Below are positions 21,794 to 56,241 of a stretch of 64,000 bases of DNA, piece after piece. Numbering within the stretch: position 1 is the first letter of the stretch; each line of letters starts with the position of its first letter. The notes under the pieces are model-generated. The model was not told the DNA's origin, made no database searches, and was given only the letters and a program-made list of their open reading frames with translations. This DNA comes from Octopus vulgaris (taxonomy: Eukaryota): contig OX597817.1 of the NCBI GenBank assembly GCA_951406725.2, positions 175,150,001-175,214,000 on the forward strand. The letters run 5' to 3'. Both the position numbers and the translations under genes were made by a program.

Positions 21794-21834
21794 ATCAATT
21801 GTATGATCAGATGGAGTATGATGAAAATGAAAGG
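21794..21834 (+). CDS. tau/MAP2/MAP4-like gene, exon A: (D)QLYDQMEYDENER; the ATG at 21811 could be the start
   Basis: ttttattttag acceptor and AGG|gtatgt donor. 41 nt, ends in phase 0, matching the next exon. Confidence 0.6.
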
Positions 21835-24264
21835 GTATGTATTAATAAAGCACTTTACTAATTTTCCTTCATTTAGAAAGAACTGAGTCTCTCCTTAAGT
21901 TTGTTGGTTATATTGTTCCTTGCTTTGCACTTTCAAATTCTCCAAACAATAGTTTACTCCAATTTTTGTGAACAATACATATATTTATTGAAACCATTTT
22001 TGTGCCTTGGTGTGTAATTAATACTAAATATCTTTAAGACGCTGAGATGGAAAGAATGGATCAATGTTTGTGGAGATTATTACTTTGTAGTATTTTGGCT
22101 CTGAGATCAAATTCTACTTGATCGGATTTGCCATATACCCTTGTATCTTCCTTTTACCTTTTACTTGTTTCATTCATTGGACTGGCCATGCTGGGGCACC
22201 ATATTGAAGGAATTAGTCAAACAAATCAATCCAGCACTTATTTTCTAAATCTGAGACTTATTTCATTAGTCCCTTTTGTCTAAATGCTAAGCTCTAGGGA
22301 CATAAGCAAATCAATACAAATTGTCAAGAACTGGAAGAAGGAAAGTCACAAAGACATACATAGACATGCACATGTGTGCACGCATGCACACACAAACACA
22401 CACACACACACACACACACACACATTTTAGACTTCTGCATAGTTTCCATCTGCTAACTTTACTCATAAGGCATTGGTTGACTCAGGGCTTTAGTTGAAGA
22501 TATTTGCCCAAAACACTACATGGTGGGCTTGAACCCGAAAATATGTGGTTGCAATCAAGTTTCTTAACCACAGCCATGCCTTCTCCTACGTTGCTTCAAT
22601 ATCACATCAGTACATGATATGGACTTTATTCAATTGACTATGTTTCTCCACTACAAAAATAGAACTTGTAAGGGCTGAGTAAGGAACAAATACCACATGA
22701 CATTCAGCATTATTTATTTTATGATATTTATATCAAAAAGTATTATTATTTATGTTTATAACATGATTTATTCTGTAAAAGTAATGTGTGATTTACTCAC
22801 AAAAGCAGAGGAGGTTTTAAGGTCAAAGTAAACGTTTTAGTCATTAGTTGAAGACTCAGACTATTTGATCAAATGTTACACTCATATATGTGACCCAAAT
22901 GAGGTTATTAGCTAAATCTTAATATAAAGTAATAAAACCTGGCAGTAGTTTGTGTTCATTAGCTTTTTTTTTTAATATGAAAAAGGCATTAGTATATCTT
23001 TTTATATATAATTTCAATTATTATTTAATATCAACTATAATTATATGTGAAGCTTGAATAGGTCACTTAATATACTGGAAAGTTAATTATTGTATAAATA
23101 CTTAAATATACTCCTAATAGGATTGTTTAGTTTTTCAATGTAATTTTCTTTTTAATTAAGACTTAAACTAAAAAAAGGTTGTGAAATAAGTTCAATACTT
23201 TGGTACATCTAGTATATTACATAATTAATTCAGAAATTACCAAAATTGCTATGGATTGCAAAACATCGTAAAATTGTATTTAAAAATGCAAAAATTGACC
23301 TGCTTCATATTTTTGTTTTAAATCGGTGAATTAGATAGAATTAGTTCTCGATACTCAAGGTTTTAAGTTTTTGTATATTAGGTCAGTATCTAATTCACAT
23401 ACTTAAACAAAGAACCTTGTTTAAATTCAGCATTAGAATTTTCTTTCTCATAAGGCATGTAAACTTGTTCCATTTTGTTAAATTTACAGTGCAGCTAACC
23501 TCACATTATAGCACTTTGCTTTAGTCCATTTTCTTATAATTAGATATTATTGTATTTTTAAATAAAACATTTTAACTTTGTAACTTAAGTCCACCACAGA
23601 GAACAATAATGTCTAGTTATTTATGGCTTCATCCTTATTGATTTAGCTACTTTAACAGGTTTAAGAATGATTTTAATCTCAAAGAAATTAAATTGGTTAT
23701 GAAATAAGTAGTGAGAAATAAATTTAGATTTCAATCCTGACGGCTTTGAAACTGGCGTTTAATAAAGTAATTAATCTTTCTATCAAGATACTTTAATTCA
23801 GATTTCTAGATTAAAGTAAAATGATACAAGGCAATCCTTTCGTCAAACTGAATCCATAATAACCATTTCATTTCACCTCATGACACAGACACCTGTGGAA
23901 AAGAAATGAACAGTATGCAACCTCAGTGCTTTTATTTATTTATTTATTTATTTTATTTATTTTTTTTTGATTATCATAAAACTATGATCTCATACAGAAG
24001 TCATTGACTAGAGACAACAGAATCTTTTCAGAATGTGGGGGAAAACATTTAATCTTACGTTTTGTGTATCTTAATAAATCTTCTGAAGTTAATTTCTTTC
24101 TTCTTCTTTATTATTAAGATTTGGTCTGAGCACAAATTTTAGCTTGTAACCACTTTATGAATTACAAAAATGAAAGAAAACAAGCTTTTTAACTGTAAAC
24201 CATTCCTGAAAATCTTTGTTGATTAATTTTTTTTTTAATATGAAGCATCTTATTTATTTTATAG

Positions 24265-24451
24265 CTCTCACCACTGTCACCAAATGCTAGAAAGAGATAT
24301 GGGATCAATGCTAGAAATGAAACTTATCGCCCAGGAGGAGGGAATGTTCGGATTTTCAGTGAAAAGATGGATTTCAAAAACGTTTCGTCAAGAATTGACT
24401 CACGCAGTAAATCCCCTCGGAAATCCCCTCCTTCATCAACTCAGAGTCCGG
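24265..24451 (+). CDS. tau-like exon B: LSPLSPNARKRYGINARNETYRPGGGNVRIFSEKMDFKNVSSRIDSRSKSPRKSPPSSTQSP
   Basis: ttttatag acceptor and G|gtaagc donor. 187 nt, phase 0-1; PGGG motif and SP-rich segment. Confidence 0.88.
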
Positions 24452-24782
24452 GTAAGCAAACTTGACTTAATCAATTGCAGGTTAGATGTATTTCACAAAA
24501 TGCCACCTGTTCAAAGTAGCCTAATTGTCTTTTCATTTATTGTTATTGTTTGTTATTTAAAAAAAAATATAAGTGCTTTTACAATTTTAGTCTTAGCAAT
24601 GTTAAAGCAAGACAAAAAGAAAATAGACATAATTTTTTATCACCTGAAGTAGAGAGGATAAGTTATTGAAGACTGGTGATGAAAGGACTTTGGCAAACAC
24701 AACTGATTGAATGATTAACTGAGTGATTAGTCAATCAACCAATTAGTTAGTTAGTTAAATAACTAACCAAATGAATTTTTGT

Positions 24783-24927
24783 GTCATTCTCTTTTAGTGT
24801 CGCATTATCTAACACACCCACTGGTAAAGTTTCCACTCATTTACTTTATTATTTTTCCTAAAATTTTCGTTGCATCTTGCAACCTTTTCAATAGATGTTG
24901 ACTAATAAGGCACTAAAAGAGAATGAC
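24783..24927. mobile_element. Short inverted-repeat-bounded element carrying a hammerhead motif
   Basis: 17-bp IR GTCATTCTCTTTTAGTG / CACTAAAAGAGAATGAC enclosing the motif at 24858-24894. Confidence 0.6.
24858..24894 (-). ncRNA. Minimal hammerhead motif, U3-A8 variant
   Basis: Minus strand CUA-UUGAAAA-G-GUUGCA-AGA-UGCAAC-GAAA-AU-UU-UAG: 6-bp stem II, palindromic stem III AAUU, 3-bp stem I. Confidence 0.6.
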
Positions 24928-53763: not shown

Positions 53764-53904
53764 GTAAGCAAAATTCCCTGAAATAATGGAAGAGTCTAAA
53801 AATGATTTTTTTTATTAGTATTCATTTGTTTAATCATCTTTGTTTCAGTTATGACATCAATGTTATGTGTATTGTTGTTGTTGTTGTTATTATTGTTATT
53901 ATTA

Positions 53905-54570
53905 AGGCAGCAAGCTGGCAGAATTGTTAGAACATCAGGTTAAATGTTTAGTAGCATTTTGTCTGTCTATATGTTCTGAATTCAAATTCACCCAAAGTTG
54001 ACTTTGCCTTCCATCCTTTCAGGAGCAATTAAATATGTACCAGTTTAGTACTGGTGTTGATATAATCCACAACTATCCCCTCCCACCCACCAAAAAAAAA
54101 AAAATTTCAGGCCTTGTTCTAATTGTAGAAACAATTAATTGAAGGCAGTGAGCTGGCAGAATCATCACTGCCCCACACAAATTGGTTAGCAGCCCTTCTT
54201 TTGGTTCTATATTCCTAGTTCAAATTCCACTAAGGGTCAATGTAATTGACTAATTCCCTCTCACAATATTTCAGGCCTTGTGCCTGTTATGGAAAAGATT
54301 ATTATTATTATTATTATTATTATTATTATTATTATTATTATTATTATTATTATTGTTATTGTTATTATTATTATTATTATTAATTAACATACTGGCTAAA
54401 TCATTAGAACATTGCAGAAAATGCTTAGCAGTATTTATTCTGGTCTTTTACATTCTGAGTTCAGTACACACCGATGTCAACTGTGCCTTTCATCCTTTCA
54501 AGGTTGATAAAATATTCTATATCAGTCAAGTATTGGGGGTGGGTGGGTCTGTGATAATGATTGACTAAAA
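53905..54570 (+). mobile_element. Three tandem SINE family B copies separated by (TTA)n
   Basis: Repeated GGCAG..AGCTGGCAGAA heads and TTTGCCTT.CATCCTTTC cores. Confidence 0.8.
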
Positions 54571-56115
54571 CTACTATTATTATCATTATTATTTTGATAC
54601 TTTAGGATATCTATGTTTTGTACTAATGGTGTTTATTTTCTTCATAGTTATAAGCTATTGCTATTTTTCATTTTTTTTTTTTGTTGGAGGTGGGATGGCA
54701 GATAATTTATTTACAGAGAAATTCCAGACCATATCAATTTTTGCTTTTTATTCAATAGCCCAAGAAAATAAAAGAATCAGACCCGCTCGAGTCGTTTAAA
54801 CATACAAATTTAATTTATCTCATATTTTATTGCTACTAATTCCTGTTTTGATGTATTGCTTGTAATTCACGTTTTACAGATTTGATTTGTTATAGCTAAC
54901 TAAAATTAACAAATAATCTATTTTTGAAAAGCCAAATAAATGAATTTAGTAAAATGTATTTATTCACAAAAAGAACTTCTTTCCTCACAAAGATTCCATT
55001 TAGACAGTTTCTGTTTCCTTTCCCATTTTCTTTTTAATGCTCAAGTGTCTGCTGTTCTATGCTGGCATTCCTTAATAGTGCTACATTTTTATTTTAATCT
55101 ATTAGAATCAATAGATTGGGCACGTTTTCTAAAATGTCTATCTTCTTTTTAAGTTTTTAACAGCACTCAATTAGATTTCTGTTCCCAATTTTATTTTGAA
55201 TTGGCGGAATCTTTGTATTAGCATGAGGTGTGTGGTATCTTTATATTAATTTTTAAATAGCTTCACTTGCTGTTTATACTTCAGCTCATGGAAATGGTGT
55301 TGTTTTATATTTTGTTGTAAGTTAGATATGTCTATTTTGAAATTTTCCTCTCCTGGGTTGTGTTTATTATGGGATTTCTAATTTAGTTCATTTGATGCCT
55401 TTCTTCATTTCCCCCTTTTTTTTTGTTTAAATTAAATATATAGTACAATTTGCCTAATATGAAATTTCTTCCAATATTTTTTTTAATAATTTTTCCTTTA
55501 TATTACTAAGAACAGTTAAGTTTATAAAATGAGTTCTGTAACTCTTTCAAGAAATTTTACTATTTTACATTAGTAATACAACACATAACTGGAGTTTACT
55601 TTGGTTTCATTAAAAGAAAGGAGAAACAAGTTGTCATTTATTGTTCTTTGTTAATCTTTGAGAATGATTTATGAATTTGTTTATTCTTCAGAATAATTTG
55701 TTATTCTTTAGAGTGACTGTAGACCCATTAGAACTGTCCCCCAACACCTATTTTGTATTTCTATTCAGTTTCATGTTTTGAAATGGAACTAGGAAAATAT
55801 CCTCTTGTCTCTCAAATTATTTTATAGTTGGTTGGTAGCCACAATGAAACTATTCTGGTAGGAATTTTCTTTGAGGAATTTCATATTATTTTCATTTCAA
55901 TAAATGTCCATTGTTACTTTGGTTATCTTGACAAATCGAACATGTACTCACAAGTGAAAACTACTTAAGGATCAAATATTATTATATAATGTACTAAAAC
56001 TGCTGAGTTCTATTTCCAGTGAAAATAAGTCTATTTATTTATTGATTTTTATACTGAGGAAACATCCTTTGAAGCTGTCAGTTATCTGTTAATAAAAACT
56101 GTTGGTTCTCTACAG

Positions 56116-56241
56116 ATTCCATCGCAAAACGTTCTTGGAAAGGAAGTTGACTCAAACGTTGGTTGTATTAGTGACGAAGACCACCAAGCTGTTGGTGGTA
56201 TTGCATCATCTCCTCCTCCTCCTTCTTCTTCACTACCACAG
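56116..56241 (+). CDS. tau-like exon J: IPSQNVLGKEVDSNVGCISDEDHQAVGGIASSPPPPSSSLPQ (degenerate repeat plus Pro/Ser tail)
   Basis: ttctctacag acceptor and CAG|gtaaca donor. 126 nt, phase 0-0; aligns loosely to the repeat (S.VG....H...GG). Read-through stays open to TGA at 56386-56388. Confidence 0.7.

Follow-up and report, generated by a model that had tools for sequence, protein, structure and literature searches.

Does an octopus gene whose genomic sequence encodes seven tau-type repeats also use all seven, and is so long an array peculiar to its lineage? Both questions are raised by positions 21794 to 56241 of the window, a stretch of 64,000 nucleotides of Octopus vulgaris DNA (contig OX597817.1); all features described here lie on its plus strand. 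We consider it likely, with a probability of roughly 0.8, that these positions belong to a tau-family gene in which a duplication gave the repeats R5 and R6 and in which cassette splicing tunes microtubules via repeat number. The family, the gene and the phenomenon are each known already, and the locus is a usable example of repeat-number splicing.

The exon chain and its place in the tau/MAP2/MAP4 family

The original prediction described ten GT-AG exons (41+187+110+82+113+90x4+126 nt) in a single open frame. Re-deriving coordinates and frame from the window sequence confirmed this: all ten exons are preceded by AG and followed by GT and have the claimed lengths, and the joined 1019 nt are open throughout in a single one of their three frames. 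Each 90-nt exon, like the 126-nt exon, has phase 0-0. The first exon (21794..21834, 41 nt), an internal coding exon identified by splice sites, frame and protein match, encodes an acidic linker that equals residues 450-463 of P0003, an annotated O. vulgaris protein. The second (24265..24451, 187 nt; PF00418, 33.7 bits) carries a Ser/Pro-rich stretch and R0, which consists of PGGG and the subsequent inter-repeat segment without KxGS and is scored by Pfam as an eighth, detached half-repeat upstream of the array. R0-like motifs also occur in proteins of Haliotis, Gigantopelta, Mercenaria, Mya and Dreissena. Frame and Pfam place R1 at the end of the next exon (25588..25697, 110 nt, phase 0), R2 in 36820..36901 (82 nt) and R3 in 39243..39355 (113 nt). 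Four 90-nt exons follow, R4 (45462..45551), R5 (47646..47735), R6 (48720..48809) and R7 (53674..53763), and then an acidic exon (56116..56241, 126 nt, net charge -4) that resembles a decayed repeat, lacks both KxGS and PGGG, and is also found in the proteins P0001 and P0002. As predicted, seven of seven repeats show the K/RxGS core followed by PGGG, R4-R7 measure 30 aa and carry K[LV]EW, and all seven repeats lack Cys. The core is KxGS in six repeats and RVGS in R2.

Eight of nine tested exon peptides, R4-R7 among them, exceeded the 27-bit cut-off of the Pfam tubulin-binding model PF00418 (33.7-55.3 bits), which is one of the checks that the prediction had proposed; the 126-nt exon gave no hit, and the 41-nt exon was left out as too short. 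The repeat match is therefore not due to chance. P0003 scored 204.8 bits against PF00418 in six stretches, and the best PDB match was human tau (E 2.7e-35). These results support the predicted membership in the tau/MAP2/MAP4 family and, judged by its sequence, the locus is the C-terminal half of an octopus gene of this family.

The gene had been called hidden, but NCBI, UniRef and nr already contain an O. vulgaris protein with five repeats and otherwise the same residues. This protein, P0003 (752 aa), is named "titin-like" by NCBI and "Microtubule-associated protein" by UniRef. We rejected titin, since at E 0.01 P0003 contains no Pfam family other than PF00418 and no arrays of Ig/FN3 domains; the NCBI name is misleading, and its correction is one use of the present analysis. 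Eight of the ten exons match residues 450-729 of P0003 exactly. Its repeats lie at residues 545-687, near the C-terminus, with an SP-rich stretch before them and a pseudo-repeat tail after them. P0003 lacks R5, R6 and a 60-nt candidate exon described below, which leaves five repeats as against seven in the genome, and is otherwise residue-identical. Its residues 1-449 and its final 22 residues have no match anywhere in the window, so the gene extends beyond both ends and all ten exons are internal. The final exon lies beyond the window, and the tail exon is seen only in P0003.

R5 and R6 are tandem duplicates

The R5 exon lies in copy A (47600..48480) of a tandem duplication of about 1.07 kb, and the R6 exon lies in copy B (about 48672-49600). 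Positions 47600-47815 are 89-99% identical to copy B, and the remainder of copy A is 70% identical. The two exons, separated by an intron of 984 nt, agree at 87 of 90 nucleotides and 27 of 30 amino acids; there are no synonymous differences at 18.2 sites, and all three differences are non-synonymous. In the introns that follow them, an adjacent stretch is identical at 78 of 79 bases versus 448 of 638 farther on (Fisher p 2e-10 for a tract picked post hoc). Gene conversion probably keeps R5 and R6 alike, although selection on splice elements could instead account for the conserved tract.

Exons this similar might be thought to reflect two haplotypes or a false duplication in the assembly, with six repeats in the real genome. 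The flanking intron copies, however, are merely 70% identical (the 448/638 above). Moreover, an X1 contig spans 47786-48889, from the flank of copy A through R6, and contigs of X1 and X10 continue into distinct downstream flanks of both copies. This reading is already largely refuted, and we regard it as scarcely credible. R5 and R6 are real tandem duplicates, which bears out the proposal that the array grew through symmetric phase-0 exons.

Splice forms and the use of R5 and R6

Evidence on splicing came from the contigs of four runs (X23, X1, X10 and X21), taken for RNA by guess, whose joints were examined over 36600-52450; R7 and the last exon could appear there as loose ends at most. GT..AG joints connect R2 to R3 and R3 to R4 in three of the four runs each, and R4 is present in all three joint-bearing runs. 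Before 36820, X23 has a loose end equal to the last 30 nt of the R1 exon. Behind 45551, X23 (a 2334-nt contig, depth 140) and X1 have a loose end equal to the first 30 nt of the R7 exon, that is, a skip from R4 to R7 that omits R5 and R6 (2/4 runs). A GT..AG joint from R4 to R5 occurs in X10 (1/4 runs; a 710-nt contig, depth 95), and no joint of this gene was seen among the contigs of X21, where absence proves nothing. Thus the contigs show two splice forms, one that skips R5-R6 and has five repeats and another that includes at least R5 and has six or more. R5 is a cassette exon: X10 includes it, whereas X23, X1 and P0003 leave it out.

The variation of repeat number by alternative splicing that is typical of the family is accordingly found here, with the R4-R7 skip in two of four runs, R4-R5 in one and neither in one. 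Since contigs lose rare forms, the runs may differ on account of individuals or assembly rather than regulation. The predicted adjustment of repeat number in 30-aa steps holds for the skip (X23, X1) and for the inclusion of R5 (X10), but the seven repeats are intact in the genome, whereas no single transcript with all of them was directly observed. The available text of PMC8985376 leaves open whether octopus database entries are isoforms or fragments. Our results point to real isoforms, and two octopus repeats appear to be spliced in and out much as in human tau. No letter differences suggestive of RNA editing were listed inside exons when contigs were compared with the genome, although such a comparison informs on editing only with DNA of the same animal. 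A literature search, which fell short of most subscription journals, found no study of cephalopod tau splicing.

Whether R6 is used is less direct. Its exon has intact splice sites, frame and Pfam match, and its inclusion is deduced indirectly. Among the 15 of 67 joints listed there is no R5-R6 joint, and in X10 the depth over the R6 bin limits R6 inclusion to about 40, versus 95 for R4-R5. It is possible, if rather doubtful, that R6 is redundant and rarely or never used, with five and six repeats in the working isoforms and a seventh persisting only via gene conversion from R5. The missing joint and the low depth fit such a view, as do the exclusively non-synonymous R5-R6 differences and the cephalopod-like protein P0001, which has six repeats. 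Against it, strong GT-AG sites are kept at R6, and Argonauta has a gene model with seven repeats. Furthermore, the X10 contig that runs into the intron begins 28 bases from the exon end rather than 30, as expected of a competing path of the form "exon end + GT + not G"; R6 starts with GTA and R7 with ATT, so the start fits an R5-to-R6 path, with the reservation that this hint assumes 31-mer contigs and that an error tip could imitate it.

The same boundary hint favours R5-R6 joining over mutual exclusion of the two exons through RNA pairing of the docking/selector type, which would cap the array at six repeats. A tandem exon duplication flanked by a conserved intron tract would suit such a mechanism, and so would the absence of a direct R5-R6 joint from those listed. 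Nonetheless, the conserved tracts pair with neighbouring introns no better than shuffled sequences in four of four tests (a crude scan with 20 shuffles per test, 16-18 of which were as good or better), no unusual fold was found when a stem-loop like that of tau exon 10 was sought at the R5 donor (z -0.48), the R5-R6 intron measures 984 nt, and no R4-R6 joint is among the joints listed. We therefore regard mutual exclusion as improbable.

On the preferred reading, in which repeat number is set by cassette splicing, the protein would, by analogy with its family, be disordered and bind microtubules, its repeats running along the protofilament and bridging tubulin dimers, and the KxGS serines, MARK/PAR-1 sites in the family, would be phosphorylation switches. 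Splicing the in-frame 90-nt cassettes in or out would give 5, 6 or, less often, 7 repeats, and repeat number may in turn tune microtubule stability, bundling and kinesin access, like that of 3R/4R tau and 3R-5R MAP4. According to the accessible part of PMC6279373, repeat-number isoforms of vertebrate tau and MAP4 alter stability, bundling and kinesin inhibition, and 4R and 5R MAP4 do not differ significantly in tubulin binding ratio; hence an extra repeat need not increase binding. A natural series of 5, 6 and 7 near-identical, Cys-free repeats offers a probe of the effect of one extra repeat on microtubules and motors.

A second variable site may lie between R1 and R2, where an X1 contig end and AG/GT boundaries mark a candidate alternative exon (27776..27835, 60 nt, phase 0-0) for a basic 20-aa peptide (net +8). 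Only its 3' junction was seen: an X1 contig has a loose end of 26 nt ahead of 36818, and this end has its unique match within the window at the candidate. The peptide has no Pfam hit, and its motif is absent from the four cephalopod-like proteins checked. The candidate does not figure in the exon list of the original prediction. Another reading of the segment at 27.8 kb, a membrane anchor starting at an ATG, was considered and rejected, because its hydrophobic frame consists of an ATT microsatellite and because there is a good phase-0 acceptor at 27775.

Repeat number among vertebrates, molluscs and other relatives

Vertebrate MAPT, MAP2 and MAP4 have the same repeat type as the octopus gene, and its 82- and 113-nt exons match tau exons 11 and 12 in size and phase. 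In vertebrates the variable exon, exon 10 (31 aa, with Cys), follows R1 and precedes the 82-nt exon, whereas the variable octopus repeats are 30 aa long, bear Trp and come after the 113-nt exon; where vertebrates have exon 10, the octopus has the candidate basic, non-repeat exon. It is tempting, though still speculative, to see here an independently evolved tau switch that is regulated by cell type and has two controls, a 5R/6R/7R ladder of gene-converted Trp-type cassettes and a strongly basic 20-aa cassette at the position of human exon 10, which together might set microtubule affinity and motor access in different neurons. If true, it would be a convergent, Cys-free counterpart of the 3R/4R system. 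The available text of PMC6279373 describes vertebrate repeat number as set through splicing, and that of PMC4815063 describes teleost tau with 5-7 repeats via phase-0 exon duplication. The latter also gives, as a vertebrate mark, a core Cys in the second and third repeats; 0/7 octopus repeats have Cys. Invertebrate genes form the outgroup to all three vertebrate paralogues in the portions seen of PMC4815063 and PMC8985376. In C. elegans, too, the family has a single member, PTL-1, which is spliced into 4R and 5R forms (PMC5094566, accessible part) but has fewer repeats than octopus.

The seven repeats had been interpreted as a lineage-expanded array. They are in fact ordinary, because the proper baseline is molluscs and not human tau: a profile scan counted 5-10 repeats in nine proteins of eight non-cephalopod mollusc species. 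The profile gave 0 hits in 60 shuffled proteins, was built from the counted proteins, and has one of 18 columns empty; its counts are lower bounds and were cross-checked with Pfam on 6 proteins. The available text of PMC8985376 gives molluscs an average of 5 repeats, some having 7-10 and oyster 10. The expansion was to be abandoned if all molluscs shared one repeat number; the counts vary, but octopus still falls inside their range.

An expansion specific to cephalopods and linked to giant axons or a large brain is very improbable and, as regards number, already contradicted by the higher counts of Mercenaria (clam, 9), Nucella (whelk, 10), the brachiopod Lingula (11) and tunicates (9 and 11), and of the oyster. 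In its favour, R5 and R6 are alike within Octopus (27/30 aa) and within Argonauta (29/30), which suggests that duplication or homogenisation was fairly recent in octopods. Between the two species the identity is 24-25 of 30, and identities over 30 residues cannot tell independent duplication from conversion. The Argonauta hians protein in question (P0002, 793 aa, "microtubule-associated protein 4-like") is a gene model with seven repeats in the same 31,32,30,30,30,30 spacing; it has Trp in R4-R7, no Cys, R0 and the acidic decayed repeat like octopus, and differs by its own substitutions common to its R4-R6.

The significance of the locus is modest, since the gene, the family and high mollusc repeat counts are already in databases and in print. 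The O. bimaculoides gene is named LOC106878541 in PMC8985376, in whose available text octopus exons and isoforms are not resolved. What the present locus adds is exon-level detail: optional repeats, sample differences in the form made and a candidate basic insert where vertebrate tau has exon 10. Among the mollusc relatives, 30-aa units with Trp and repeats without Cys are widespread, and their tau-like proteins resemble octopus in having 5-10 Cys-free repeats, many of the proteins with such units. Bivalves and Nucella differ from octopus in appending 32-aa units at the end.

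Structure and annotation of the tau-family gene

A six-frame motif scan of the window placed units carrying PGGG/KxGS, the latter a phosphorylation motif of MARK/PAR-1 kinases, on the + strand only, between 24.3 and 53.8 kb; outside this region, two single matches near 4-5 kb were unrelated. Ten + strand exons, each preceded by AG and followed by GT, were found at 21794-21834, 24265-24451 (187 nt), 25588-25697, 36820-36901 (82 nt), 39243-39355 (113 nt), 45462-45551 (R4), 47646-47735 (R5), 48720-48809 (R6), 53674-53763 (R7) and 56116-56241 (126 nt). They have the lengths originally predicted and join in one open frame (one of three over the joined 1019 nt), and the last five, with the extra repeat exons that had been described as symmetric, are all phase 0-0. 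Their translations contain the seven predicted K/RxGS...PGGG repeats (R1-R7), none with Cys (0/7), and R4-R7 are each 30 aa long with K[LV]EW. The cut-off of PF00418, the Pfam tau/MAP tubulin-binding repeat family, was passed by 8/9 exon peptides, and the best-matching PDB sequences, 49 in number, all derive from human or mouse tau (lowest E 2.7e-35). By its sequence, the gene belongs to this established family. The observation behind the original prediction was confirmed and its interpretation supported in part; both gene and family were already known, and seven repeats lie within the published mollusc range.

A homology search with the 187-nt exon yielded 4 proteins out of 18 candidates. The gene is not hidden, as had been proposed, but already annotated: residues 450-729 of P0003, an O. 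vulgaris protein of 752 aa called "titin-like [Octopus vulgaris]" in NCBI and "Microtubule-associated protein" in UniRef, match eight of the ten exons exactly, with R4 running directly into R7 to give five repeats. The window thus probably derives from O. vulgaris itself or from a species very close to it. Residues 1-449 and the last 22 have no counterpart within the window, which therefore holds the middle of the gene only. Since no Pfam family other than PF00418 was found in P0003, the name "titin" is wrong. Three further proteins (P0001, P0004 and P0010) are only 250-365 aa long, with N-termini just ahead of the region of exon 21794-21834, which hints at an internal promoter or a short isoform; tblastn found no first exon matching them in the window. 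The long upstream intron holds the reverse transcriptase frame of a LINE-like element (2093-3463, - strand; PF00078, E 1.9e-27), and related fragments lie near 10.3-12.6 kb. Two similar decayed frames on the - strand (4356-4730 and 60802-61269; no Pfam match at E 0.01) resemble DNA-transposon (Tc1/mariner-like) remnants.

The original prediction overlooked a detached half-repeat, the decayed-repeat nature of the 126-nt exon and a 60-nt candidate exon. The half-repeat, in exon 24265-24451 (+) upstream of R1, scores above the PF00418 cut-off, is also present ~60 residues ahead of R1 in five further genera of molluscs and is conserved across cephalopods, gastropods and bivalves; it is possibly an extra microtubule contact. 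The 126-nt exon (56116-56241) can be aligned loosely with the repeats but is acidic and retains neither KxGS nor PGGG. Octopus, Argonauta and P0001 all have such an acidic decayed repeat inserted after R7 and ahead of the tail, and none was found in the complete proteins of Dreissena, Mya, Haliotis and Gigantopelta, where the tail directly follows the last repeat. The candidate exon (27776-27835, +; AG-GT, phase 0-0), between R1 and the 82-nt exon, encodes 20 aa with a net charge of +8 and is seen at its 3' junction only, in a single contig of a single run (X1), where the R2 exon is preceded by 26 bases with a unique match at 27808-27833 within the window. Its peptide motif was not found in the four cephalopod-like proteins compared. 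Should the 82- and 113-nt exons of octopus be the counterparts of tau exons 11 and 12, whose sizes they match, the candidate would occupy the place of tau exon 10.

Transcript evidence on R5 and R6

Transcript evidence came from four sequencing runs (X23, X10, X1 and X21) aligned over 36600-52450 as assembled contigs from unspecified tissue, whose RNA label is a guess; GT..AG joints that excise introns of 2-6 kb argue that these contigs are spliced RNA. The R2-R3 and R3-R4 joints were seen in X23, X10 and X1, and X21 had no joint of this gene within 36600-52450. In X23, a 2334-nt contig (depth 140) enters from the R1 exon end, passes through R2, R3 and R4 and continues into the initial 30 bases of R7, which is the five-repeat form; a matching R4-R7 loose end is present in X1. 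In X10, a 710-nt contig (depth 95) contains an R4-R5 joint (45549 to 47644, GT..AG) and ends 59 bases inside R5, beyond which 31-mers cannot separate R5 from R6; its length is consistent with the six exons upstream plus 28 bases, the stretch upstream of R2 being placed by arithmetic. R5 is therefore a real cassette, and the samples differ in its use.

No R5-R6 joint was present among the 15 of 67 joints listed. An exon-to-intron contig in X10 starts 28 bases short of the exon end, as would happen if a competing path shared "GT" and then diverged; R6 (GTA) meets this pattern, R7 (ATT) does not. Contig boundaries observed at two other donors in X1 follow the same rule, although an error tip could give the same picture in X10. 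The boundary is an indirect hint in favour of the seven-repeat form, and depth in the bin with R6-specific bases roughly limits R6 in X10 to ~40 versus 95. The likeliest reading is that X10 has mainly six repeats with a minor seven-repeat form, and that five repeats predominate in X23 and X1. The proposed adjustment of repeat number in 30-aa steps is supported in part, by the five-repeat form and the R4-R5 joint, the seven-repeat form being a candidate. Our literature search listed no study of cephalopod tau isoforms, and this splice detail may be unreported in print.

The sequence places the gene in the family, and the data demonstrate its exon structure, the duplication and a pair of splice forms; by family analogy, the repeats would lie along the protofilament, contacting it where tubulin dimers meet. 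Octopus cells may choose five, six or seven repeats and so set microtubule stability and motor access, for which the basic 20-aa insert is perhaps a second means. Given their low net charge (+1 each vs +4 for R2 and R3), R5 and R6 might, speculatively, contribute extra length and a Trp anchor rather than much electrostatic affinity. The isoforms of tau (3R/4R) and of MAP4 (3R-5R) are reported to stabilise and bundle microtubules and to inhibit kinesin to different degrees, with no difference in binding ratio between 4R and 5R MAP4 (PMC6279373). There are precedents both for gaining repeats through duplication of a phase-0 exon and for varying their number by splicing: teleost tau has 5, 6 and 7 repeats via such duplication (PMC4815063), and PTL-1 has 4R and 5R forms (PMC5094566).

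Origin of R5 and R6

R5 and R6 lie within a ~1.07-kb tandem duplication, intron included, which is real because X1 and X10 contigs extend into the differing flanks of both copies. The copies are identical at 448/638 positions (70%) over most of the intron, at 41/46 just before the exon, 87/90 within it and 78/79 just after, forming a near-identical tract of ~200 bases (47600-47815 and ~48672-48889). Three changes separate R5 from R6, all of them non-synonymous and within the first 29 bases; none of the 18.2 synonymous sites differs, an outcome with a chance of ~0.002 at intron divergence, whereas R4 and R5 differ at 14 synonymous positions. This likeness is most simply explained by gene conversion across ~200 bases, the alternative being that constraint on splice elements kept the tract alike. 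In Argonauta, R5 and R6 are identical at 29/30 aa, which is compatible with repeated duplication as well as with conversion. One X1 contig has the copy-A base at 48848, reflecting an allele or a collapsed contig. Mutually exclusive use of R5 and R6 through docking/selector pairing was also considered, and no such pairing was found.

Repeat number across species

Repeats were counted by a profile scan over 362 fetched proteins, 37 of them inspected by hand. Counts ranged from 2 to 13, and 64/362 proteins had at least seven repeats, a proportion that is no frequency, as the searches favour many-repeat proteins and include numerous fish isoforms. Argonauta hians P0002 (793 aa) has seven repeats spaced as in the octopus gene, and the cephalopod-like P0001 has six. 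The nine named non-cephalopod mollusc proteins have five (Batillaria and a partial Candidula), six (Dreissena, Mya, Haliotis, Gigantopelta and one from Mercenaria), nine (the other Mercenaria protein) and ten repeats (Nucella); elsewhere, Lingula and Clavelina have 11, Ciona nine, Danio rerio eight and Notothenia seven. Pfam gave the same counts for Haliotis, Gigantopelta, the nine-repeat Mercenaria protein and Nucella, and exceeded them by one in P0002 and P0003, where it also counts the upstream half-repeat. Seven repeats are therefore ordinary rather than a notable lineage expansion, within both our mollusc counts (5-10) and the range in the available text of PMC8985376, where molluscs have the highest average number (5), some have 7-10 and oyster has 10. 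That text assigns three O. bimaculoides entries to one gene, LOC106878541, and leaves the isoforms unresolved.

Cys was absent from the repeat core in all 11 named mollusc proteins (0/11). Trp just before the core is associated with 30-aa spacing, occurring at 152/421 spacings of 30 aa, 4/804 of 31 aa and 0/152 of 32 aa. Tau-like repeats were also present in fungal proteins of Syncephalastrum (eight repeats), Gigaspora and Racocetra (P0015, P0220 and P0236), a set that includes 30-aa units without Trp. The maximum among the 362 proteins scanned was 13 repeats, in P0241 (1847 aa).
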